Notes: a model not told the origin generated them from the letters alone. Positions 46,611 through 58,765 are shown, counted from the first letter of the stretch. The stretch: DNA of 64,000 nt from an uncultured Candidatus Saccharibacteria bacterium (GCA_964392285.1 CAYMOW010000002.1:1-64000); one strand, 5' to 3'. Numbers and translations are program-made.

Positions 46611-47018
46611 TCATTGGATAAAGTCTACTTCAAACCCATACATCCCCATCGTACAACTACCCTGCATCAAACCTTCGGCGGGCGAACCGACCTCAATGTC
46701 TGTATTGCCAGAAAAATCCAGACTCCTACTTATACCAACACTTGGGATCCTGACTGAAACAGAACAATCAAACGAGCCTTTAGAGTCAAAACGAAAAACG
46801 GTCGGCAGACCGGCTTTGGCAACGCTTCGCCTCGGAGAGTATCCGCCCTTGGCTCTTATATTTACAACCTGCACCCCATCAACAAATTCGACATTCGCCG
46901 TCGGTGCTTTGGTGTAGTTCGCCTCTCTGGGTCTGCTTTCTTGACTCTTACCCTGACCAAATAAGAACAAGAGGCCGACTAAGGCCAATAAAGTTATTCC
47001 GATCAGAGCAGTTTTCAT
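46611..47018 (-). CDS. secreted cupredoxin-like/metal-binding domain protein (putative copper-binding partner of the cop operon)
   Basis: Signal peptide, and a beta-rich domain ending GSCTMGMYGFEV (a Cys/Met pair). It lies immediately downstream of the HMA-permease and copA on the same strand. Confidence 0.4.
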   Translation of the reverse strand: MKTALIGITLLALVGLLFLFGQGKSQESRPREANYTKAPTANVEFVDGVQVVNIRAKGGYSPRRSVAKAGLPTVFRFDSKGSFDCSVSVRIPSVGISRSLDFSGNTDIEVGSPAEGLMQGSCTMGMYGFEVDFIQ

Positions 47019-47031
47019 AAAATTTATTCTA

Positions 47032-48054
47032 TCAGAAATTAAAAATCGGTGACAAAAGACCGACTGCCACCAAACTATTCAGAAGATTAAACAGAGCAAA
47101 GAGGATAACTAGAAGACCGGCTGATTTGAAGAAAACTCCAGCCCAAGAACTTTTGTGTATGGCAAAAGACGAAAAGCTGAGGAGCGCAAGTATTGGCAAG
47201 GTACCGAGAGCAAAGACAAACATCGTGAGCGCGCCGTCCAAGAAGGAGCCCGAAGAAAGAGTGTAGATCTGCATTGATTGGGTAAAACCGCAAGGCAAAA
47301 AGAAGGTCGCGACGCCAACTAAAATCGGCGAAAGAGAATGGCTAAGCTTTGAAGCATTGTGAACGTGCTTGCCAATAAACTTTGGCATACGCGGCTCTAG
47401 CCTCTTGGCCCAAGGAAAGATATCAAGCAAATTTATCCCGAGCACAACCATGACCAAACCAATGATCAAGCTCAGAACAAAAGAGAGGCTCGGACTCAAA
47501 GTAAAGGCGGTACCCATGGCACCAATCACTCCACCCAACAAAAAGAAAGAGACTAGTCGACCAAGATGGAACATAGTTTGGGGACGCAACTTATCGCCTT
47601 CTTTGGCAAAAGTTGCCGACATCGAAAGCACCAGACCGCCCACAACCGCCATACAAGAAGAAAGCGAGGCAATCACCCCAACAAGAAAGACGGTGCCAAA
47701 AGACAACTTACTCGCATCAACCCAATTTACTATGCCAAGCTTTTGGAGCAGAACAAAAAGCACACTCAGAAAAAGAGCAATGGGTATAGCCCATCTAAAG
47801 TCCGACCACTTGCCTGACTTTGACTCTTTTTCCAAAGAAAGTTTGTAGCCGTGCGGTATAAGTGGTCGCGAGAGGAACTCGGCAATTTCCGCCGCGCTCA
47901 GATCGCCAAAATCACCAACAACCTGCATCGTTTGGGTTTTTAGGTGAGACTTTGCGCTTTCAACCCCGGCAATATTGCCGACTTCGCTTTCGGTCAACAG
48001 GACACAAGAAGCGCAGTGCATACCATGAATATGAAAAGTGTAATTCTGGCTCAT
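47032..48054 (-). CDS. HMA (heavy-metal-associated) domain fused to a polytopic membrane permease-like domain
   Basis: [20 protein letters not shown] (MxCxxC), followed by about 8 TM segments. The start overlaps the copA stop by 4 nt. Confidence 0.65.
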
Positions 48055-50396
48055 ATTTTTTTGGATTTTATTCGTAATGAATTCGCTACAACCGAGACAC
48101 TCGACATCGCCATGGCAAAGCCGGCAAAGATTGGGTTGAGTAGCCAGCCGAAAAAGGGATAAAAAGCTCCAGCCGCAAGCGGGATACCCACAACGTTATA
48201 AATAAAAGCCCAGAACAAATTTTGCCTGATACCGCGCATGGTCATCTTTGAGAGCCGGGTAGCTTTGACAAGTTTGGAGATGTCGCCATGAAGCAGAGTG
48301 ATCCCGGCCGATTCGATTGCCACATCAGTACCAGTCGCCATAGCAATACCGACATCGGCTTTGGCCAAAGCCGGAGCATCGTTCACCCCATCGCCAGCCA
48401 TCGCAACCACAAGACCTTCTCTTTGCAGAGCCTCAATCTTGCGTAGTTTGTCCTCGGGCAAGACATGAGCGACGACCTCATCGATACCGACCTCGTTTGC
48501 AATATAACGCGCGGTCTTCTCTTCATCACCAGTGAGCATTACAACTTTGATCCCGAGTTTGTGGAGGTCGGAAACAGCTTGCTTTGCTTCTGGCTTTACC
48601 TCGTCGGCAACCATCACCAAGGCTAACACTTTTTCTTTTGTAGCCAAGATAACCGGTGTTTTGCCCTGAGCGGTTAGCTCGTGCAGTTTGGTCTGTTCAA
48701 AATCGAGAGCGAGTTCGTCTACAAGTTTTGTATTGCCGGCAAAGTATTCGACTCCATCGATCAGCCCTTTGATACCCTTCCCTTGCAGATTTTGAAAATT
48801 GACCACTTCCGCAAGATCCAAATTTTTGGCTTCGGTCCTTAGAGGATCTGCGGTCCTTACAGGATCTACGACCCTTTCAGGATCTGCGACATAATTCAAG
48901 ATGGCGCGAGCGATTGGGTGCTCGGACTTTTTCTCCAGCGAAGCCAAGATTGAGATCACTTGCGAGTCGGTAAAGGTTGAAAAGTTTATGACATCGACGA
49001 GAGTTGGAAAACCTTTAGTCACAGTGCCGGTCTTATCGACAACTACTGTATTTACTTTGTGCAATTTCTCCAAAGTCGCCGCATCTTTGATGAGGATGCC
49101 TTCCTTGGCACCCTTGCCCACCCCGACGATTATAGCGGTCGGCGTAGCCAAACCCAGAGCGCAAGGACAAGCAATGACCAGGATACCCACAAATGAGACC
49201 AGACCAAAAGAGAGAGCTTCGGCAAAACCCAAATATTGCGAACCGACAAAGAGCCAGAGCCCCAAGGTAACAAAGGCGAGCACAAGCACAACCGGCACAA
49301 AAACACTGGAGATTTTGTCCGCAAGCGCTTGGATCGGCGCTTTGCTGCCTTGGGCCTCTCTTACCATTTTTACAATCTGAGCGAGCAGGGTTTCTGAGCC
49401 AACTTTGGTCGCTTTGAAAACAAAAGAGCCTGTCGTATTGATAGTCCCCGAAACAACGCTGTCACCGACCGATTTTTTCACCGGCATTGGCTCACCGGTC
49501 ACAAGCGATTCATCTACAAAAGAAACACCATTGGTTATCAGACCATCGACAGGAATCTTTGAACCGGGTTTGACCACAATCAAATCGCCATGCTTTACAT
49601 CATTCACAGAAATTTCGATCTCTTGACCGTCGCGTATCACCAAAGCAGTTTTGGCCTGAAGATTGAGAAGCTTTTCGATAGCATCGCCGGTCTTTACCTT
49701 TGAACGAGCTTCGAGATACTTGCCGAGAGTAATAAAAGTGATGACAACAATTGTGACATCATAATATTGGTGATCGACATTTACAAAATTCTCAAGCAAG
49801 GTCTCGAAGGCTGAGATCACAAAGCTATACAGATAGGCTGCGCTTGTACCGATACCAATCAGGGTATCCATGTTGGCCTTACCAAAACGCAGAAAACGAT
49901 AGACACCAGAAAGATACGGTCGGCCAATAACAAACAAAATATAAGTCGCAAACACCGGCAATAAGTGATGCACAAAATCATCGACTACCGGACTCATTTC
50001 GGCTGCCAACTCATATTGCATCAAAACATCCCAGATCATTATGGCGATACTAAAGATCGCAATCGGCACCGCCGAGAACAACCCTTTCTTCATACTTTGT
50101 AATTCGGCAAGCTTCTCCACCTTTGACTCACTGAGTCCGAGATGCTTCGCGTGCTCGTCTGCGCTCATACCCATTGCCTCGGCTGTGTCTTCAACAAGAG
50201 AGTAGCCCAACGGTTCGATTTGTTTTGACAGATCTTTGGCGTGCAACTTCTGCTCATCAAAACTTATTTTGGCCGTTTCCGTACCAAAATTTACTTCAAC
50301 ACTATTTACGCCACTTTCTTTTTTGAGCGTCTTTTCGATAATATTGGCGCAAGACGCACAATGCATTCCTTTTATCTTAAAAATTTCTTTTCTCAT
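48051..50396 (-). CDS. copA: copper-translocating P1B-type ATPase CopA
   Basis: N-terminal [19 protein letters not shown] motif ([12 protein letters not shown]), DKTGTVT, and [10 protein letters not shown]. Confidence 0.95.
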
Positions 50397-50443
50397 ATCT
50401 TATATTTTTTATTTTTCGTAGTTTTCGTATAATTTTAGTCTAT

Positions 50444-50707
50444 TTATTTTCTCTTGAGTCGATAAACCTCCAGCACTTCTTTGACCGCCTTGCTTTCGCT
50501 ACCCTTCTTCATCTGATGTACGACGCAAGTATTGAGATGGTTCTCAAGTAAAGCGTCCTCAACGCTCGAAAGCGCCCGTTTGACCGCCGAAGTCTGGGTA
50601 ATAACATCGATACAATAGACATCTCGGTCGATCATTTCTTGCAAACCTCTGACCTGACCTTCAATAATTTTGAGCCTCCTAATTATACGTGATTTGGGTG
50701 TAATCAT
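50444..50707 (-). CDS. csoR: CsoR-family copper-sensing repressor
   Basis: LKRLKIIEGQVRGLQEMIDRDVYCIDVITQTSAVKRALSSVEDALLENHL: the RcnR/CsoR fold with Cys and His ligands. Confidence 0.85.
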   Translation of the reverse strand: MITPKSRIIRRLKIIEGQVRGLQEMIDRDVYCIDVITQTSAVKRALSSVEDALLENHLNTCVVHQMKKGSESKAVKEVLEVYRLKRK

Positions 50708-50845
50708 ATTTTTGAAAATTGAAAATTATAAATTGATAATTCTATACTATACCCCCCTAGGGTATTAGTCAAGTCAAACCAAAACCACTTCTGGGGATAA
50801 TCCAAAAGTGGTTTTGGCCGGTTTCGGCTTTGGTCGAACCAGAGA

Positions 50846-51552: not shown

Positions 51553-51999
51553 TCAAAAATAAATAAGATACCAGACTAGGAGTGCCAAGGCGCCCCACCA
51601 ACCAAGGTCAGAAAAAATAAGACTGACTATTATTTTGTTCTGCCAAGAAGCGGGCAAAAGCTCCTCCGCTCGACCCTCCCTCTCTTTTTTCAAAAGATAT
51701 GGGCTGACGCGAAAAGATAAAAACAAGCCATTGAGTATGAGCACGATAGCAATCAGAGCCAAGTACATTGGCAGACCAACAAAAGGTTCGCTCCTAAAAA
51801 ATATACCGCCCCCGATAATCGCAAGAAAAATACCCGCCCAAATCATCGGCTTAGTGACTTTGTGGGTGCGCGTGGTAGCCTCGGTCCAGTAATTTGATTT
51901 TCGCCCTAAAAATCCATGAATATCAATCACCGTCACAGCTCCAAGTCCAACCACAAACCCAGCGACAAGCAAGAACAATCCGATGAAATCAAGAATCAT
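51553..51999 (-). CDS. hypothetical membrane protein (4 TM, no cysteines; not DsbB/VKOR)
   Basis: Hydrophobic ORF; Cys-free, so unlikely to be the DsbA redox partner. Confidence 0.45.
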   Translation of the reverse strand: MILDFIGLFLLVAGFVVGLGAVTVIDIHGFLGRKSNYWTEATTRTHKVTKPMIWAGIFLAIIGGGIFFRSEPFVGLPMYLALIAIVLILNGLFLSFRVSPYLLKKEREGRAEELLPASWQNKIIVSLIFSDLGWWGALALLVWYLIYF

Positions 52000-52050
52000 A
52001 AACTTATAATAACACCAAACTAGTTAGTAAAAAATTCTCAAACTCACAAA

Positions 52051-52467
52051 CTAAGAGTTGAGGTAAGTAATGGTCAATTGCAAAACAGTGGCAAAAGAGA
52101 CCCACAAGAGATATGGAATGTTCGCATAAACTACCCACCTCAGATCACTAGAACCTTGAGGCACAAGTCGCCATATTAGGACCATCCCCCAGACCAAAGT
52201 AGCCAGAACCAGCAAAATATCGATCGAGGCCAAAAGATTGTTTTGCAGACCAAATTGAATCGGTGTAAAAGCAAAATTAAAAAACAGATTCAAAACAAAA
52301 GGCAACGCCACAAATCGCGGAATCTTGCGCTTCAAGGCAGAGTAAAAGACTTTACCAAAAGAAATGGCAATGATGGCATAAAGTACCGTCCACACCGGAC
52401 CAAAGACCCAACTCGGCGGCGCCCAAGATGGTTTGATCAAATCTATATACTTAGTTGTTTCGTTCAT
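52051..52467 (-). CDS. tspO: TspO/MBR-family tryptophan-rich sensory protein
   Basis: PSWAPPSWVFGPVWTVLYAIIAISFG: the canonical TspO N-terminus and a 5-TM layout. Confidence 0.85.
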   Translation of the reverse strand: MNETTKYIDLIKPSWAPPSWVFGPVWTVLYAIIAISFGKVFYSALKRKIPRFVALPFVLNLFFNFAFTPIQFGLQNNLLASIDILLVLATLVWGMVLIWRLVPQGSSDLRWVVYANIPYLLWVSFATVLQLTITYLNS

Positions 52468-52515
52468 GTTATTTTATAACTTACATAAATTTGATAGTAT
52501 TGTGATGATTTGAGT

Positions 52516-53346
52516 TTACGCCGTGTTGAGAGATACCGCAACTTTTGCTTTCAAATATTCGCCGACTATAACATCGATTCCTACTGGATTTTTATACCAA
52601 GAATCTCGTTTATATTGATCTCCCGTACCGCAATTTACACGAATCAACCTAGCATCATCGGGAAGATATTTTTTGAAATGAGCCCAACCCCTTCTTTGGG
52701 TATAAGGAGAATTCACCAAAACGATTGAATTGTAAGAAATTCCTTTTTCATCAAGAATATTTAACGAACTCCTTACATTATCAGGGACAGTAATTGATTT
52801 GTCTTCAATAATAATTGCTTTTTCTGGCACACCTTTATCCATGGCCATTTGAGCATAAACTTCTGCCTCGGTCGGAGCAGAGCCCTCTCCATAATACGGA
52901 CCTCGACCACTGACGACAATAGTTTGTGATATCTCTTGTTTATAAAGCTCAATAGCTTTTTCAATTCTAAATGGAGTTTTGGCACCAAAAACAAATATCA
53001 AATCCGATTTTTCTGGCACATCTTCCTCGGCAAGATAATCGTAAACACTGTTAAGTACTTCTACGTCTTCGGGTAACAATTCTTTGTTAAGAATCTTGCC
53101 TTTTAACTGCCCTACAATACCTTTTCCTTTTTCTAACAAATTTTCATTACCTACGTCTTCTTTTGAATATGTCGTGGCCAAAATTTGAGCATCCAAACCA
53201 AAATGTTCAGCCAGTTTAATCAATGGAGAAAAATCAAAATAATGAAGTTCTTCCTTTCCTTTAGGAAAACCTCTTTTTGCTTCCGCATCGAGGATAGTCT
53301 TGAGTTCTTCTGAGTTTGGCAGTTGACTAAAATTATCTCTTTTCAT
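52516..53346 (-). CDS. DUF218/YdcF-ElyC-like domain protein
   Basis: LIFVFGAK...IVVSGRG...EAEVYAQMAMDKGVPEKAIIIEDKSITVPDNVRSS...LVNSPYTQRR. Confidence 0.6.
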   Translation of the reverse strand: MKRDNFSQLPNSEELKTILDAEAKRGFPKGKEELHYFDFSPLIKLAEHFGLDAQILATTYSKEDVGNENLLEKGKGIVGQLKGKILNKELLPEDVEVLNSVYDYLAEEDVPEKSDLIFVFGAKTPFRIEKAIELYKQEISQTIVVSGRGPYYGEGSAPTEAEVYAQMAMDKGVPEKAIIIEDKSITVPDNVRSSLNILDEKGISYNSIVLVNSPYTQRRGWAHFKKYLPDDARLIRVNCGTGDQYKRDSWYKNPVGIDVIVGEYLKAKVAVSLNTA

Positions 53347-53410
53347 CTCTTACATTATAGACTAATATTATACGATTAAATTTTGCTAGTTGTTTGAGAG
53401 AGTATACAGA

Positions 53411-54229
53411 CTATTTTAGACCAAGTACCTTTTCAACAAAAGGCTTAAATTTATTGAACTCTGCAGCAACATCTGGGCCTATCTCCACTATCGACTCTTC
53501 ATATTTTATTTCTTTTTTTAAACTTCTTTCTACATAATCGTCGTGGATTTCCCCCAACCATGCAGATAGTTTAAAAATAGAATAAAACAGCCAATGTAAG
53601 TTTCCGCCACAATTCTCAGCAGCAGGGACTTGCATAAGATTCGATAATAATCGAAATCTTTTTCTTAATTTATGAAATTGTTCTATTGGAAGATTGTTTG
53701 CCTGTACTAGTGTTGCAATGTGATCTAAAATACTTTTCGCATATTTTTTGAATTCTTCTGTATCTATAAAATTTACTGAAAAATCTAGGTCGCTCAAACT
53801 ATCTAAAATACCTTCCCTAATTTCTGGTTGAGATGATATCCAGTAACTGTCATTGTACTCACCCAAAAGAAACAAAAAGTGATTTAATTTTTCTCCACAT
53901 TTATGGCTGGTGTCGGTAAATCTATATAGAGCTTTCAGGATCAGCCCATAACGCCTAACCTGTTTTAAATAAGAAAAGCTTTCTTCATTTGCTTCAAGTT
54001 TAATTTCTCGTACAAACCTCTCCTTATCAAAAATAAATTCAAATGCTTTTCTTGCTTCTTCAAAAATATGTTCACGATATTGTTTATCTTCAAAAATATT
54101 TGAAAAATCAACTTCATCAGGATTCAATTCTGGTCTTGTTCTAATATCAAAAAAACGAGAGACCAGGATTGGTTCAGTCTGTATGTTCTCTAAATTATTT
54201 TTCATATTTGATATATTATCAGGATTCAA
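53411..54229 (-). CDS. hypothetical protein (272 aa), AT-rich
   Basis: ORF only; I recognise no family. Confidence 0.4.
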   Translation of the reverse strand: MNPDNISNMKNNLENIQTEPILVSRFFDIRTRPELNPDEVDFSNIFEDKQYREHIFEEARKAFEFIFDKERFVREIKLEANEESFSYLKQVRRYGLILKALYRFTDTSHKCGEKLNHFLFLLGEYNDSYWISSQPEIREGILDSLSDLDFSVNFIDTEEFKKYAKSILDHIATLVQANNLPIEQFHKLRKRFRLLSNLMQVPAAENCGGNLHWLFYSIFKLSAWLGEIHDDYVERSLKKEIKYEESIVEIGPDVAAEFNKFKPFVEKVLGLK

Positions 54230-54417
54230 AATTGTTAGATAGGTATCAATTTTACGTTGTAAATACTACTAAAGTCTAGGGTTATCCGTCCAAAGGAGCA
54301 CCTAAACAGAACCGAGATCAATATAACAGAAAACTCACTGAGCGACGAGTTCCTGTAATACAGACCAACTTGTGTATTGAAATCATGGACTGGCCCAATC
54401 TCCAAATTTATGACTAC

Positions 54418-54452
54418 CAAAACCGCTCCGCCCTTCAGAGCGGTTTTGATTT
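54418..54452 (+). terminator. intrinsic terminator closing a roughly 180-nt leader upstream of the 54518 gene (possible attenuator/riboswitch)
   Basis: AAAACCGCTC-CGCCCTTCA-GAGCGGTTTT followed by GATTTGTTCT. The upstream 54270..54417 contains CTAGGGTTATCCG...GAACCGAGA. Confidence 0.45.
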
Positions 54453-54517
54453 GTTCTAAAAGATAGCTCGTTCTTCAATCGATGGACAAATTAAAAAGGC
54501 GCGAATAGAATAGAAAC

Positions 54518-54991
54518 ATGTATAAAAAAATTCCTAATTTTATTTTATATGGAGCCACGGCGGTCTTGGGTCTCATTGTCCTCGCCTTATGTATTTTTGC
54601 CTTGCCTTCGATGTGGCGAAATGGCCCACTTGAATTTCCCGAGGCTAGCTTGGCAGTGCGACTCATCGTAATCGGTTTGTATGCGACCACTATTCCCTTT
54701 TTTATCGGTCTTTGGCATGTCTTCAAATTCCTCCGCTATGTGAGCAAAGATATGGGCTTTTCTGACCTAGCGATAAAAGCCTTACACAATATAAAATACT
54801 GTGCCCTCATAATAGGAGTTATGTGTATGATTGGCGTGCCACTTTTGCTCCCAATCGCCGAGGCCGATGATGCTCCCGGGCTTCTTGTAGTCGGATTTGC
54901 AATCGCTTGCGCACCTTTCGTCATTGCTTCATTTATCGAAATTCTACAAAGGCTTTTGAGAATTGGGATGAAAAAATCTGGGATAAAATAA
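54518..54991 (+). CDS. small membrane protein (4 TM), DUF2975-like
   Basis: MYKKIPNFILYGATAVLGLIVLALCIFALP..., a hydrophobic 157-aa ORF preceded by the leader/terminator. Confidence 0.55.
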   Translation: MYKKIPNFILYGATAVLGLIVLALCIFALPSMWRNGPLEFPEASLAVRLIVIGLYATTIPFFIGLWHVFKFLRYVSKDMGFSDLAIKALHNIKYCALIIGVMCMIGVPLLLPIAEADDAPGLLVVGFAIACAPFVIASFIEILQRLLRIGMKKSGIK

Positions 54992-55056
54992 AAAAGCGCC
55001 CGCAAAGGTATGTAAACCCCTACTGGCGCAAACCCCACGGATTCAAATCGCACGGT

Positions 55057-55794
55057 TCACCCCTTATAGAGAATGAACCATTGGTGCTCAAACGGGAACC
55101 TGATCACTCCCCGCGTGCACTCTTTGCCAAAGTATTCCGCCAGATAGGCGGGCACCGCTGGCGCAGAGATAAATCTCTCGTAGCGGTCCTTTTCTGCGTT
55201 ACTGTAAACAAAAGCTAGGGCTTCCATGACTTCGTTGATGCTTTCTGAGGTTACAAGAGTCGGAACCATATGCTCTTGAATTACACAGAAATTGGTCCGC
55301 AAGAACCACCTCAATCCATCAAGCCCCTCCCGATTGACAGGAAACCGCTCGAGCGAACTCCAATCAAGCAAATCGCTCCAATGCCCTTGTTCATCATTGA
55401 ATGTAACGACGACGAGATGACCACCCTTCGCGACCATCCGATGAGCCTCCCGGACGAAGTGCTCTCGCGTCGCCGTGATGTTGGGCAAAGAGTGCGAAAT
55501 CAACACCAGGTCGAACTGCTCGCTTGGGGAAGTACCGACAACCTCAGGAAAAAAGCCTTCCACAACATTGATACCTTGCCCCGTGAGGCGCGATACAAAA
55601 TTCTTGCTCGCCTCGATTGCCCTATAGTGAGGCACCAAATTAGAAAGTGGTAGAGCAAGACTTCCATCCCCCGCCCCGATGTCCAGCAAAGACGCCGGCT
55701 TGAACGTGCTAATAATTTGCGTGAGGTACCGGATGAAAACCGCCTTCTCGTCGGTACACGCAAGAAAACGACCAAAACTCTCTTCATAGCTCAT
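55057..55794 (-). CDS. class I SAM-dependent methyltransferase
   Basis: LLDIGAGDGSLA (motif I) and the acidic loop DLVLISHSL. Start moved to ATG 55794 (MSYEESF), which has a CTAGGAG RBS. Confidence 0.7.
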   Translation of the reverse strand: MSYEESFGRFLACTDEKAVFIRYLTQIISTFKPASLLDIGAGDGSLALPLSNLVPHYRAIEASKNFVSRLTGQGINVVEGFFPEVVGTSPSEQFDLVLISHSLPNITATREHFVREAHRMVAKGGHLVVVTFNDEQGHWSDLLDWSSLERFPVNREGLDGLRWFLRTNFCVIQEHMVPTLVTSESINEVMEALAFVYSNAEKDRYERFISAPAVPAYLAEYFGKECTRGVIRFPFEHQWFILYKG

Positions 55795-55836
55795 AAGTAC
55801 TCCTAGCAAGCACCCTAGCATTTCTGAAATTTATTT

Positions 55837-55989
55837 TCAATTCGATGAAATAAAAAAATATATACCTATAATAACACCAAAAGAAATCGCGATGATGGCA
55901 TAAAGTACTGTCCACACCGGACCAAAGATCCAACTCGGCGGCGCCCAATCCGGTCTAATCAAATTCAAATACCTTGTTGCTTCGTTCAT
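55837..55989 (-). pseudogene. tspO: truncated duplicate of the tspO 5' end (51 codons)
   Basis: Encodes MNEATRYLNLIRPDWAPPSWIFGPVWTVLYAIIAISFG... then diverges and stops. The DNA is about 88% identical to 52351..52470. Confidence 0.7.
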
Positions 55990-56018
55990 ATTGTTTTGTA
56001 TTAATTTGAAATTTTAAA

Positions 56019-56330
56019 TCACTTTTTAGGTTTACCTAGGCCCGTGGTAGTGACGAATTGTTCCATATAATTCAAGTAATCCTGACTTCCAACTTGTATT
56101 TTCAAATCATCAAAAGCCTCTTTCAGAATTTGCGAAGCGTCTTCCATATTCAAGGCTGGCTCGTAAGAATCATCTTCTGCCCCATCACCTTCTTCATCTT
56201 TTGACTTACCAAACAAATTCTGCCGCATTCTCTTTTCGAGATATGCTCGCGCATCCCTTTCCGCTCGTTCGTTTATCTCCCTCAACCGGTCCGCACCACC
56301 TTCCAAACTTGGTTTAATAGGTTCTTCCAT
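56019..56330 (-). CDS. hypothetical acidic protein (103 aa)
   Basis: ORF; charged and helical; no family recognised. Confidence 0.4.
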   Translation of the reverse strand: MEEPIKPSLEGGADRLREINERAERDARAYLEKRMRQNLFGKSKDEEGDGAEDDSYEPALNMEDASQILKEAFDDLKIQVGSQDYLNYMEQFVTTTGLGKPKK

Positions 56331-56407
56331 ATTTCTTATATTAGGATTAAATTTTGCTGGCCATCTGGTACGAAGTCGGAACAGTTCTATGTATTTAATT
56401 CAAGTTT

Positions 56408-57493
56408 TTACCTGCCTATTTGTTCTCGCAACATTTTAATAAGTTCGGTTACAAGTTGTGAGTCATATTTGCCACTAACTTCTTTTGTTCTAGGTTCAGA
56501 AAATAGTATATCTAAACCTTTATCAAGAATTTTCTCCCCTCTCTCTTTGTGGGTAGTAATAAGGTTGTTCATAGTATTCATTGATGAATACTTAAACATA
56601 TAATTATTATAAAGTCGTTTGTGAAATAAAAACTGATTGGCAGCAAAAAGGGTTAGGTACGCGGGCACAATTAAACTAGTTATACGCAATATAGCCATAC
56701 CAACTTTTATTTCCTGAGTTTTTGTTGCTGCTTTAATAATGAATTCGTATGTTACCCATCCGGTCATAAAAGCAAAAATAAACGAGGCTAGAAGCCATAG
56801 CCAACTACCACCCAAATCATATTCAGAAGGAAATTTCTTCATTTTTTCTTTTATAGATTCAGGAGCATTATTTTTGCCTATCCAAGCACGAATTGTTTTA
56901 TGTTCACGAGCCATATCATGGAATGCTTCAGCTTGTTCCTCTATTGTTTTTCCGTTAATGTCGCGCCGAATATGTAACCATTTCTCTGCTCCACCGATTG
57001 CTTCTTGTATGTCAGTAGATTTAGTAGCAAGTGAATTAGCAACACTTTCTGCCTCTGTAAAACGATTTATTTTTTGAACAAGAATGCTTTCAGCAATTTT
57101 TGCAGCATTTAAATCTACATATATACCAGTGTTCTTAATCGAGGAGTTAAGTGAGTGCAATTGCGATACCGCATTATGATGTTGGGTGGTAATTTGATCA
57201 TAACCAAGAGTGGGTAAACCATGATTGTTATAAGAATTTATAAATCCAGATAACTGATTGTCGATGTTTCTAATATCAAGCGGTGAAGCTGAATCAAGAA
57301 CAGAAATGTTAGTTTTGATATCTTGCAAAAGATTAACCACAATTTGTACCAAGTGTTGGACATCTTCGGGAGTTAAATTATTCCAATTTTGTATACTAGG
57401 ATTTTTGGAGTACAACTTACTAAGATCAAATTTTAAAATCTGATCAATTTTTTCCAATATCTGTGCTTTTACTTCTGAGGTTGCCATCTGCAA
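56408..57493 (-). CDS. hypothetical protein with a soluble N-terminal domain and a C-terminal 2-TM module (SLATT-like effector architecture?)
   Basis: About 230-aa soluble region, then WLWLLASFIFAFMTGWVTYEFII and MAILRITSLIVPAYLTLFAANQFLF, plus a roughly 80-aa tail; AT-rich. Confidence 0.5.
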   Translation of the reverse strand: MQMATSEVKAQILEKIDQILKFDLSKLYSKNPSIQNWNNLTPEDVQHLVQIVVNLLQDIKTNISVLDSASPLDIRNIDNQLSGFINSYNNHGLPTLGYDQITTQHHNAVSQLHSLNSSIKNTGIYVDLNAAKIAESILVQKINRFTEAESVANSLATKSTDIQEAIGGAEKWLHIRRDINGKTIEEQAEAFHDMAREHKTIRAWIGKNNAPESIKEKMKKFPSEYDLGGSWLWLLASFIFAFMTGWVTYEFIIKAATKTQEIKVGMAILRITSLIVPAYLTLFAANQFLFHKRLYNNYMFKYSSMNTMNNLITTHKERGEKILDKGLDILFSEPRTKEVSGKYDSQLVTELIKMLREQIGR

Positions 57494-57956
57494 TTATAGT
57501 TTCTATTATTCTTAATTTGTTTTTAAAATTATCTCCAACCTCTACAACTTCTAGTAGTAAATTCGTATCTTGAAACAACTGTTTTTTAAAGTGGTCGGAA
57601 CTAATTCGTTTGGGGTCAAGGTGCGATTTGCCATTAAGTTCTATAGCAAAGATGGGTTTAAAATACTCGTTGCACACAAGAAAGTCAACATGCCGAGACC
57701 AGATTTTATTCCGCCATTTATAATCTGAATTTGTTGGTTCGATAAAATCTATAATTCTTGTTTTTGGGAAAATATGATATTCAGGCGGCAAAGACTTTTT
57801 GAGTTCAAAAAATAGAGCTTCCTCACTCTTATTGAAAAAATTTTGTCTTAGTTTGTAAGGTAATTTTTCTTCACCACTTTCAAACTTTAAGCCTTTAAAA
57901 ATAGCCAGCAAAATTACAAGAACAATTATTGCTATAGCAAAATAAATCATAACCAA
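57444..57956 (-). CDS. membrane-anchored DUF2726-like (restriction-endonuclease-fold/NERD-like) protein
   Basis: N-terminal TM, and HVDFLVCN...PIFAIELNGKSH (a D...E-x-K-like motif). Confidence 0.5.
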   Translation of the reverse strand: MVMIYFAIAIIVLVILLAIFKGLKFESGEEKLPYKLRQNFFNKSEEALFFELKKSLPPEYHIFPKTRIIDFIEPTNSDYKWRNKIWSRHVDFLVCNEYFKPIFAIELNGKSHLDPKRISSDHFKKQLFQDTNLLLEVVEVGDNFKNKLRIIETIIADGNLRSKSTDIGKN

Positions 57957-57968
57957 ATTATATCACTT

Positions 57969-58211
57969 CTATTCTTGTGTATTTTCTCCCGGCACAGGTA
58001 TCTTGTTTCTCCTAAAGTATTCCTCGTCAAAATTTTCGTCTGGATACCTAACACCTTCTTTTCTGGTGTTTCTCTCAATCCTTTCCAAAATCCTTATCGC
58101 TTTATTTACTTTCCAATACCAAGTCAAAATTTCTCTTATTAAAAAGAAGAATATTATTCCTCCGATAAGATATACGAGAGAGTCGCTAGATAAAAGATTA
58201 TTTAAATTCAT
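57969..58211 (-). CDS. hypothetical small membrane protein (80 aa)
   Basis: ORF with a single TM. Confidence 0.35.
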   Translation of the reverse strand: MNLNNLLSSDSLVYLIGGIIFFFLIREILTWYWKVNKAIRILERIERNTRKEGVRYPDENFDEEYFRRNKIPVPGENTQE

Positions 58212-58261
58212 ATTTCTTCAGTTGTGGTTTAAATATATCATAAAAACAGAAAACCCCCACA

Positions 58262-58531
58262 TCAAACAGATCTAATAAGGCTTAATTTCTTTTCCCTCTT
58301 CCATCCTTTGATTTCTGTTTCTCTTCTTCTTGCTTCAATAAGAGTTTTAAATCCTTCAGAGTATCTCAGGATAACCGGTCTACGAATTTTGGTGTAATGA
58401 GCGCCAGATTTGGAGTTGTTGTGTTGATCCAATCTTCGTTCTAAATCATTTGTGCAACCGACGTAAAAGGATCCATCTGCACATTCTAAGATGTAGGTGA
58501 AGTATTGCATGAGATTTGAAGATACTTCCAC
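58262..58531 (-). CDS. GIY-YIG nuclease-domain protein (UPF0213-like)
   Basis: YFTYILECADGSFYVGCTNDLERRLDQHN...TLIEARRRETEIKGWKREKK. Confidence 0.75.
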   Translation of the reverse strand: MEVSSNLMQYFTYILECADGSFYVGCTNDLERRLDQHNNSKSGAHYTKIRRPVILRYSEGFKTLIEARRRETEIKGWKREKKLSLIRSV

Positions 58532-58612
58532 TTCGCTTTGCTCAGTGTCAGTACCTTCGTCTCAGTTTATTTCCTCGTGCCGAAGGCCCTGAGGAGCTAT
58601 TGCGACGAAGGG

Positions 58613-58683
58613 CTGCGGGACTTGGGCTCGAACCAAGATTAACGGATTCAGAGTCCGCTGTCCTACCATTAGACGATCCCGCA
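58613..58683 (-). tRNA. tRNA-Gln (CTG)
   Basis: Reverse complement TGCGGGATCGTCTAATGGTAGGACAGCGGA-CTCTGAA-TCCGTTAATCTTGGTTCGAGCCCAAGTCCCGCA. Confidence 0.75.
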
Positions 58684-58765
58684 ATGTTCTGTATAAAAAT
58701 ACCCTGAAATCAGATAAAATTCAACGTCTGGACGATTTTTTCAACACACAGGTTGAGCCTGTGTG

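Follow-up and report, generated by a model that had tools for sequence, protein, structure and literature searches.

The five AT-rich genes next to a tRNA-Gln gene in the genome of an uncultured Candidatus Saccharibacteria bacterium (GCA_964392285.1 CAYMOW010000002.1:1-64000; this whole stretch of 64,000 nucleotides (nt) is referred to as the window) probably represent a mosaic of separately distributed accessory genes rather than a dedicated multi-gene system. A sequence-only reading had seen in them, that is, in the genes for an acidic protein of 103 amino acids (aa), a 359-aa protein with a membrane hairpin, a membrane-anchored DUF2726 protein, an 80-aa peptide and a stand-alone GIY-YIG nuclease, a single novel abortive-infection or anti-phage module with a SLATT-type membrane-disrupting effector. 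The layout on which this reading drew is sound: all five open reading frames (ORFs) lie in the same direction on the minus strand, the tRNA-Gln gene beside them is recognised by ARAGORN and Rfam, the AT-richness is evident from the G+C content at third codon positions (GC3, 0.26-0.35 versus 0.49-0.56 in pyrG and four other genes), and the tspO remnant at the lower edge is 86% identical to the 5' end of a full tspO copy. The module itself does not hold up, since the five genes do not co-occur in the other loci examined, PADLOC is negative, the GIY-YIG protein is of the ubiquitous UPF0213 type and the neighbours of DUF2726 genes are heterogeneous. We propose that the segment at ~55.99-58.26 kb would be an AT-rich patchwork in a Patescibacteria genome, each of its genes having a distribution of its own, and that this islet would lie in a flexible neighbourhood (pyrG, tRNA-Gln, GIY-YIG, DUF2726, tspO and a copper operon) that has been shuffled in related genomes. 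The genes for the 359-aa and 103-aa proteins would then have been added as cargo, presumably by recombination, behind a conserved peptide-plus-DUF2726 unit. As a stand-alone candidate for defence or exclusion, the 359-aa hairpin protein is plausible because its family resides in the P2 anti-phage hotspot and in similar contexts.

Distribution of the five genes and their neighbourhood

PADLOC-DB v2.0 returned no meaningful match for the five proteins, the sole match being that of the GIY-YIG protein (E 0.019, 12 bits); in NCBIfam and PHROGs the further matches are of a generic kind, to GIY-YIG and DUF2726-like models, and the combination is recognised by none of the libraries used. Nine close relatives of the 359-aa protein were found, at 36-59% identity, and the contigs of seven of them (43-59%) were examined. 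Altogether ten other loci of its family were inspected, seven by blastp and three (L094, L096 and the E. coli locus L100) by gene tables and searches, and homologues of the DUF2726, GIY-YIG, 103-aa and 80-aa proteins were found in none of these ten. The neighbours in the seven related loci include genes for ribonucleotide reductase and PNPOx (L004), genes for an Exo_endo_phos protein, an acetyltransferase and ornithine decarboxylase (L002) and genes of unknown function, while an OLD-like gene (L006, L028), HEPN_AbiV (L007) and PLDc_2 (L096) are further neighbours of family genes. The survey of DUF2726 covered about 85 loci, including 80 from species-representative genomes, the closest being from Patescibacteria. 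Here the genes on the 3' side are mixed: they encode methyltransferases, S51 and M23 peptidases, NERD proteins, a type IIG restriction-modification enzyme, SMODS with a protein of two transmembrane (TM) helices, NUDIX, Fic, SocA_Panacea and PIF1 proteins, multi-TM proteins, and a 62-aa zinc-ribbon-like protein together with one of 246 aa. Co-localisation in other genomes, proposed earlier as a check of the module, is thus largely negative, the exceptions being a DUF2726 gene followed by a family member in L028 and a GIY-YIG gene upstream of DUF2726 in L025 and L046.

The three smaller genes likewise have separate records. The GIY-YIG domain, at residues 9-82 of 89, is the only domain of its protein, which matches the 'UPF0213' structures 1ywl (E 4e-15) and 1zg2 (E 2.5e-14) over its whole length and shows no notable difference from these UPF0213/YhbQ-type proteins; it is an ordinary UPF0213 (YhbQ-like) protein that resides in the neighbourhood and is not part of a module. 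Residues 41-80 of the 80-aa ORF recur with 97.5% aa identity just upstream of DUF2726 in L008/L014, and comparison of this C-terminal half with L008 (5860-5985) gives 11 synonymous versus 1 non-synonymous differences, indicative of purifying selection. The hydrophobic N-terminal half is absent from L008; there, a stop codon lies ahead of the conserved part, and a peptide of ~40 aa could start at a TTG codon. The 103-aa ORF is called as a gene in the Logan assembly, it has no match in four hidden Markov model (HMM) libraries and no blastp homologue in the 7 loci with relatives of the 359-aa protein, and it is an orphan.

The surroundings of the islet recur in other genomes in rearranged form. 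The order pyrG–tRNA-Gln–…–DUF2726 is seen in L024 and L028, and pyrG adjoins DUF2726 in L082; in seven loci the distance from tRNA-Gln to a downstream DUF2726 gene of the same strand is 0-6 kb. In L025 the order is tRNA-Gln–CopA (70%)–DsbD_2–cupredoxin–GIY-YIG–DUF2726, the GIY-YIG gene being a 76%-identical orthologue of that in the window, and in L043 it is DUF2726–253 aa–CsoR (67%)–155 aa–CopA (65%), while tspO is found within a few kb of DUF2726 in L027, L031 and L035. From this shuffled recurrence it follows that the region is flexible and that GIY-YIG, DUF2726, tspO and the copper operon reside in it. The genes for the 359-aa and 103-aa proteins are locus-specific cargo behind the 3' end of DUF2726, where relatives have different genes. 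Both the DUF2726 gene and the 359-aa gene have a GC3 of 0.26, compared with 0.33 for the GIY-YIG gene, 0.35 for the 80-aa ORF and 0.49-0.56 for pyrG, ftsX, ftsE, prfB and copA; with 0.26 against about 0.5, the DUF2726 and 359-aa genes are compositionally foreign.

The point at which cargo was presumably added can be placed by comparison with the closest DUF2726 locus, L008/L014, from a 'Saccharibacteria' metagenome-assembled genome (MAG). It shares with the window the C-terminal half of the 80-aa ORF and DUF2726 codons 1 to ~148, at 86-90% nt identity, and beyond ~codon 148 the two genomes are unrelated; the last ~15-20 codons of the window DUF2726 gene are unique to this locus and overlap the 359-aa gene. 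Because the similarity to L008 stops there and the C-terminal extension is unique, we read the 3' end of DUF2726 as a recombination joint. A very recent transfer between the window and L008 was considered and rejected, since a synonymous divergence (dS) of about 0.5-0.8 amounts to ordinary orthologous divergence. A Pfam scan of the genes at 52.0-58.5 kb revealed no integrase or recombinase domain, and the 20-nt 3' end of tRNA-Gln, searched for within the window with up to 3 mismatches, occurs only in the tRNA itself; a classical tRNA-integrated island, which would need an integrase and an att-like repeat, was rejected accordingly. The idea that DUF2726 stands beside a DNA-uptake gene was also dropped, as the large syntenic membrane protein is CopA and not ComEC. 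The copper-resistance cluster of the window (46611-50725) comprises a CsoR-type repressor, a CopA P-type ATPase with HMA, an HMA-DsbD_2 protein and a cupredoxin-like protein; its synteny with DUF2726 and tRNA-Gln is seen in L025 and L043, from other Patescibacteria.

The 359-aa protein and its relatives on plasmids and prophages

An exhaustive profile search of 1.8 billion clusters assigns the 359-aa protein to a family of 140 cluster representatives, the full-length ones being mostly 310-460 aa long; none of the 140 clusters has a named member, and the protein itself has no Pfam, PADLOC, NCBIfam or PDB assignment. AlphaFold2 run on an alignment of 89 sequences yielded a model with a pLDDT of 91.5 and a pTM of 0.60 (a run on 10 sequences gave a pLDDT of 66). 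The predicted fold consists of a helical N-domain (1-195), a loop, a helical hairpin (229-255 and 262-~285) and two more helices, the second hairpin helix continuing to residue 312 (262-312), and none of the solved structures resembles it beyond generic helical hairpins. The model supports the earlier description of a soluble N-domain followed by a predicted two-TM hairpin. The 'short tail' of that description is in fact a region of ~75 residues after TM2, and it is the best-conserved part of the protein: residues 285-359 carry the motif NQF..HK.LY..Y.FKYS...TMN...LFSEP, and the invariant residues in and after TM2 are R268, P275, Y277, N284, Q285, H289, Y296, F298, Y300 and S301 together with T305-N307 and F329-P332. 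Hydrophobicity peaks at 262-284, and at a threshold of 1.6 only TM2 is detected. It is possible that the hairpin holds the protein in the membrane such that the 228-residue helical N-domain, serving in sensing or oligomerisation, and the juxtamembrane C-domain both reside in the cytoplasm. The protein would act alone in phage exclusion or abortive infection, and upon a trigger it would perturb the membrane or block the entry of DNA.

SLATT proteins are mobile, often stand-alone or accessory, predicted pore-forming effectors of conflict systems (PMC9226505). The 359-aa protein resembles them in having two predicted TM helices with flanking helices, the first of them moderately hydrophobic, and it differs in the conserved motif after TM2, in having no significant SLATT HMM match and in the lack of a SMODS, SLOG or reverse-transcriptase partner. 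Against Pfam SLATT_1-6 it gave no match at E ≤ 0.1, and in its family SLATT_1 matches 2 of 89 full-length members (best 2.6e-4) and 1 of 39 C-terminal fragments (4.7e-3), while viral proteins annotated as SLATT match the model only at E 1.5-2.5. Neither the window nor the family loci examined hold a SMODS, SLOG, reverse-transcriptase or CBASS-type partner. A word-indexed homologue search with the C-terminal alignment A4 recovered one fragment only and offered no route to SLATT-annotated proteins, and a two-TM protein beside SMODS in L011, tried as a bridge to SLATT, was rejected for having no similarity to the 359-aa family. Membership of SLATT, which had been suggested for this protein, thus finds no support, although a SLATT-like action may still be possible. 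When PADLOC was applied to 89 family members, it gave scattered weak matches of coiled-coil type (LeoBC 5, DruC 2, LmuB 2).

The family extends to mobile elements through P0166, a distant member of 458 aa in L096 whose gene is followed by a PLDc_2 nuclease gene. By tblastn, P0166 bridges to 30 plasmids (from Vibrio, Acinetobacter, Xanthomonas, Klebsiella and others) and to Providencia phage PSTCR8lys, whereas the window protein itself had no match in the phage and plasmid collections. Three alignments were used to compare the branches, A1 of ten close relatives, A2 of the family and A7 of four proteins of the plasmid/phage branch. With hhalign, A2 and A7 align with 97.9% probability (E 4e-13) over 144 columns that run from the pre-TM helix through TM1 and TM2 to the juxtamembrane motif, and A1 and A7 with 96.4% (E 1e-9); hmmsearch with A2 scores three plasmid/phage proteins at 31-45 bits. 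Scans of genome, metagenome and viral contigs with A1 produced no confirmed locus of the family.

One protein of this branch, WP_001583354 (463 aa), shares with the family the pre-TM helix, the TM hairpin and the motif Q-x(6-8)-(E/D/N)-x-Y-x-F-K. On the E. coli CP61_Sichuan chromosome its gene is the only variable gene between the gpA / DinI-like and portal genes, in a plasmid-borne P2-like prophage of Klebsiella it lies between the gpA / DinI-like genes and the gpQ portal gene along with one other hypothetical gene, and 13 of 5426 complete E. coli genomes carry it. This cos-proximal gpA–gpQ locus, occupied in P2 by old and tin, is an anti-phage hotspot, and WP_001583354 stands as 'hypothetical' in the table of hotspot arrangements (Rousset et al., 2022, PMC9122126); apart from that row, our literature search found no paper mentioning it. 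The 359-aa protein is thus akin to P2 hotspot cargo in having a remote homologue at exactly that locus and in being a TM protein of the single-gene or small-cassette kind. It differs from such cargo in that its gene lies in a Patescibacteria chromosome rather than a P2 prophage, and in that the homology covers only ~150 residues around the TM hairpin. On the Vibrio plasmid pFORC4 the family gene has an integrase gene and one for an 'Abi family protein' directly downstream, on another Vibrio plasmid a filamentous prophage lies upstream and DarT nearby, and on an Agrobacterium plasmid a divergent helix-turn-helix (HTH) gene lies upstream. Family members are usually solitary, on plasmids and prophages.

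The defence setting proposed for the cluster is therefore retained in part: the foreign composition and the anti-phage and mobile contexts of the family speak for it, and the five-gene module and the SLATT effector are given up. A tentative extension, possible but in our judgment doubtful as a whole, is that the family constitutes a new single-gene type of anti-phage or exclusion protein reaching from Patescibacteria to Enterobacteria, with a distinctive structure in which a cytoplasmic helical sensor would control a conserved TM-hairpin/juxtamembrane effector. In some Patescibacteria it would be recruited beside a membrane-tethered DUF2726 nuclease so as to guard the site of DNA entry. As an ordinary mosaic islet, the presumed five-gene 'system' adds nothing to the catalogue of multi-gene defence. 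What is new is an unnamed family of ~140 clusters with a confident predicted structure, with no solved relative and with no Pfam, PADLOC or NCBIfam model. It ties the Patescibacteria gene to the sole cargo gene, in E. coli, of a validated anti-phage hotspot, making it directly testable in E. coli, a useful proxy given that defence in Patescibacteria is little known experimentally.

Two family loci share a further feature. The same unassigned gene, ending in …KLNKEFY(N/I)(I/D), precedes the family member in L006 (2-130) and L007 (1-53). In L006 it overlaps the start of the family gene by 4 nt, and the family gene is in turn followed by that of a 568-aa protein with a weak OLD-like TOPRIM match; in L007 HEPN_AbiV is encoded three genes downstream.

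The DUF2726 protein and competing explanations

The DUF2726 protein of the window matches Pfam PF10881 with E 2e-19 and 70 bits, compared with a cut-off of 24.7, over profile positions 2-103 of 126, and no solved relative is detectable by sequence. In an alignment of 18 homologues (A5), residues E43, D68, H87, D89, E104 and H110 are invariant and the lysine of the PD-(D/E)xK-like motif 'D...ELNGK' noted earlier is not conserved. The signature E-x-(N/D)-G-x-x-H resembles that of Vsr/DUF559. Compared with L008, the gene has a non-synonymous divergence (dN) of 0.086 and a dS of 0.49 (dN/dS about 0.18), which indicates purifying selection. The invariant residues fit the Vsr/DUF559/DUF2726 grouping of Steczkiewicz et al. 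(PMC3424549); with that group the window protein has in common a strong DUF2726 match and the conserved acidic and histidine residues, and its sub-family differs in that an N-terminal TM anchor is all that accompanies the DUF2726 domain. Earlier work describes DUF2726 as a DNase of the restriction-endonuclease fold in fusions with AbiJ N-terminal domains (PMC3710099). Lys/Arg residues after the N-terminal anchor suggest that the nuclease domain is tethered to the membrane and faces the cytoplasm. The protein would thus be a separate membrane-tethered protein of DNase fold that may cut incoming DNA at the membrane. The closest mechanistic analogy would be SNIPE (Saxton et al., 2026, PMC13190303), a nuclease bound to the membrane that cleaves the DNA of phages as it is injected: as in SNIPE, a single-gene system, an N-terminal TM anchor would hold a nuclease fold at the membrane, but SNIPE combines DUF4041 with a GIY-YIG nuclease, whereas the window protein, of 168 aa, has a PD-(D/E)xK fold and no DUF4041.

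DUF2726 proteins are known to be surrounded by mobile elements and to have undergone multiple transfers (Steczkiewicz et al., 2012, PMC3424549). We find 122 matches among species-representative genomes, the closest in Patescibacteria, and relatives on 81 plasmid records, 53 of which are conjugative; Vibrio inoviruses carry a copy after the morphogenesis genes, and in Patescibacteria DUF2726 occurs in small Rep-plus-HTH elements (L012/L013, L028). A membrane-anchored DUF2726 gene beside tRNA-Gln, with variable cargo behind it, may serve as a landmark for mining accessory or defence genes in Patescibacteria.

Several arrangements around DUF2726 genes elsewhere are worth recording. About a dozen loci (L019, L021, L029, L030, L032, L036, L049, L053, L058, L061/62 and L012/13) encode, immediately behind DUF2726 or close to it, a member of a family of ~50-aa proteins (e.g. 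MQYKFSEELRTRLIAYFKANHALDVLSETADEWLDSLANLYLSFSDMNKN), often in overlap with the DUF2726 stop codon; the family has no homologue in the window, and where it occurs it may act with DUF2726 as a partner or regulator. The small Rep elements, from Patescibacteria MAGs, lie at 1506-7120 of L012/L013 and 3422-10019 of L028. One has an inovirus-type REP_ORF2-G2P/RepSA protein and the other a CRESS-like Viral_Rep with a helicase, and in both, DUF2726 precedes genes for TM proteins and is accompanied by a divergent HTH gene and an OLD-family ATPase/TOPRIM gene; integrated elements of the single-stranded-DNA-phage-like or plasmid-like kind may be present here in the candidate phyla radiation. In L011 (105-2914), from a MAG of Patescibacteria type, the genes behind DUF2726 encode SMODS (4e-16), a 164-aa two-TM protein without Pfam match, a 101-aa protein and NTP_transf_6, a cassette that looks like a minimal CBASS-like one.

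Other explanations of the islet have to be weighed. It is unlikely, to our mind, yet worth some consideration, that the DUF2726 protein and the 359-aa hairpin protein form a two-gene unit, a membrane-tethered nuclease with a sensor, effector or immunity partner, co-transcribed and translationally coupled. The same-strand overlap of 44 nt between the two genes would accord with this, as would L028, a Nomurabacteria MAG, where a DUF2726 gene (44% identity) is followed after 60 nt by that of a 433-aa protein which belongs to the family (hmmsearch 1.4e-8, hhalign 94%, phmmer matches to many members), the pair lying in an element with genes for a viral-type Rep, an HTH protein and an OLD-like ATPase. 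The family member of L096, too, is followed by a nuclease of the PLD family with an N-terminal signal or anchor, and by our estimate, which was not computed, two adjacencies in ~85 DUF2726 loci seem above chance for so rare a family. However, the ten other family loci are without DUF2726 and about 83 DUF2726 loci are without the family, the 3' end of DUF2726 in the window looks like a secondary joint (a unique extension, with L008 homology stopping earlier), and the E. coli family member is the sole cargo gene of its hotspot; the pairing is optional at most. Extending the unit to all five genes, as a single new system of abortive infection or anti-phage defence whose effector is of SLATT type, makes it very improbable. 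Such a system would explain why the genes are co-directional, tightly spaced, AT-rich and beside a tRNA gene, and the predicted two-TM hairpin and the weak SLATT_1 matches of two of the 89 family members (best 2.6e-4) could be read in its favour, but the combination is found nowhere else among the loci examined, the UPF0213-type GIY-YIG gene is a member of many neighbourhoods, the 103-aa ORF is an orphan, the window protein has neither a SLATT match nor a SMODS, SLOG or reverse-transcriptase partner, and PADLOC is negative for the protein and for its family.

It is also rather improbable that the genes have no function in conflict at all and encode lineage-specific membrane or housekeeping proteins of Patescibacteria in a recombination-prone region, where DUF2726 could serve in DNA uptake or nucleotide scavenging and the 359-aa protein could be a membrane scaffold. 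DUF2726 is widespread in Patescibacteria, under purifying selection and syntenic with pyrG and tRNA-Gln, several loci of the 359-aa family are flanked by housekeeping genes, and many DUF2726 neighbours are unrelated to defence, all of which would suit such a role. Yet both genes are compositionally foreign, relatives of both are cargo of plasmids, prophages and inoviruses, with the family present in the P2 defence hotspot, and the patchy distribution (140 clusters in 1.8 billion) is unlike that of a core function. We therefore return to a mosaic of accessory genes with a stand-alone candidate for defence or exclusion, a view against which several points have to be set. A defence role of single genes rests on guilt by association, which is weak; several family loci, such as L004 and L002, lie among housekeeping genes, and only a small sample of the 140 clusters was placed in genomic context. 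The link to the P2 hotspot is remote, a profile comparison over 144 aligned columns at 16% identity. The topology is less than clear-cut, as the hydrophobicity of TM1 is no more than moderate (about 1.47 on the Kyte-Doolittle scale, calculated by hand) and the loop between TM1 and TM2 is rich in lysine. Finally, the gene overlap together with the adjacency in L028 means that the 359-aa and DUF2726 genes may not be fully independent.

Gene layout and the tspO copies

The coordinates of the islet genes and of the features around them are collected in the table below.

Features of the islet, of its edges and of the block between the two tspO copies (positions in the window)
Feature	Coordinates	Strand	Remarks
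DUF218 gene, AT-rich	52516-53346
272-aa orphan, AT-rich	53411-54229		GC3 0.23
DUF2975 gene	54518-54991	plus
Class I methyltransferase gene, GC-rich	55057-55821		GC3 0.58; PADLOC 'mad2' match 3e-14
tspO remnant	55837-56000	minus	50-aa TspO fragment; marks lower edge of islet
103-aa acidic ORF	56019-56330	minus	isoelectric point 4.6; D+E = 24 versus K+R = 16
Gene for 359-aa helical protein (361 aa from TTG)	56408-57487 (57493)	minus	ATG at 57487 likely start
Membrane-anchored DUF2726 gene	57444-57950 (ORF to 57956, 170 aa)	minus	168 aa from ATG 57950
80-aa ORF	57969-58211	minus	N-terminal half hydrophobic, C-terminal half charged
Stand-alone GIY-YIG gene, 89 aa	58262-58531	minus	Pfam PF01541, E 9e-19
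tRNA-Gln (anticodon CTG)	58610-58684	minus	ARAGORN; Rfam tRNA 61.9 bits; upstream landmark of islet

The ATG starts adopted for the two overlapping genes agree with homologues and with the database entries P0001 and P0011, for the 359-aa and DUF2726 proteins, respectively. With these likely starts the two genes overlap by 44 nt, and the overlap of 50 nt reported earlier is obtained if the TTG start is used. The independent Logan assembly has the same junctions of DUF2726, the 359-aa gene, the 103-aa ORF and the tspO remnant, running from the 3' part of DUF2726 to the copper ATPase gene. The relatives of the 359-aa protein, the purifying selection on DUF2726 and on the C-terminal half of the 80-aa ORF and these independently recovered junctions argue that the ORFs are more than chance. 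The Logan contig (L095, SRR15237813) breaks inside the DUF2726 gene, at locus position 1, which fits strain-level variation or a repeat at this site in the sampled population.

The full tspO copy is located at 52051-52467, and a diverged 5' fragment, placed at 55837-55989 or, as in the table, at 55837-56000, forms the lower edge of the islet, the repeat regions being 51976-52478 and 55838-56000. Positions 55876-56000 are 86% identical to 52354-52478, at the 5' end of the full copy (repeat D1), and a further repeat, D3, is 84% identical. In the remnant, the first ~113 coding nt of tspO are fused at TTTGGT to duplicated sequence from the beginning of the 148-aa gene downstream, and this joint is a microhomology deletion. 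The ~3.4 kb between the two copies look like an insertion or duplication event, possibly one of homology-facilitated illegitimate recombination with DNA of a related strain. The genes at 52516-55821 form a second block of mixed composition, and the PADLOC 'mad2' match of the methyltransferase within it is probably a generic methyltransferase match.

Promoter and terminator scans performed no better than on shuffled sequence. A 22-nt motif, TATNNTANGATTAAATTTTGCT (plus strand), occurs in two copies that are 86% identical, at 53366-53387 and 56337-56358, each directly 5' of a start codon, that of the DUF218 gene and that of the 103-aa ORF, respectively, and it may be a shared promoter element or an element of the 5' untranslated region.

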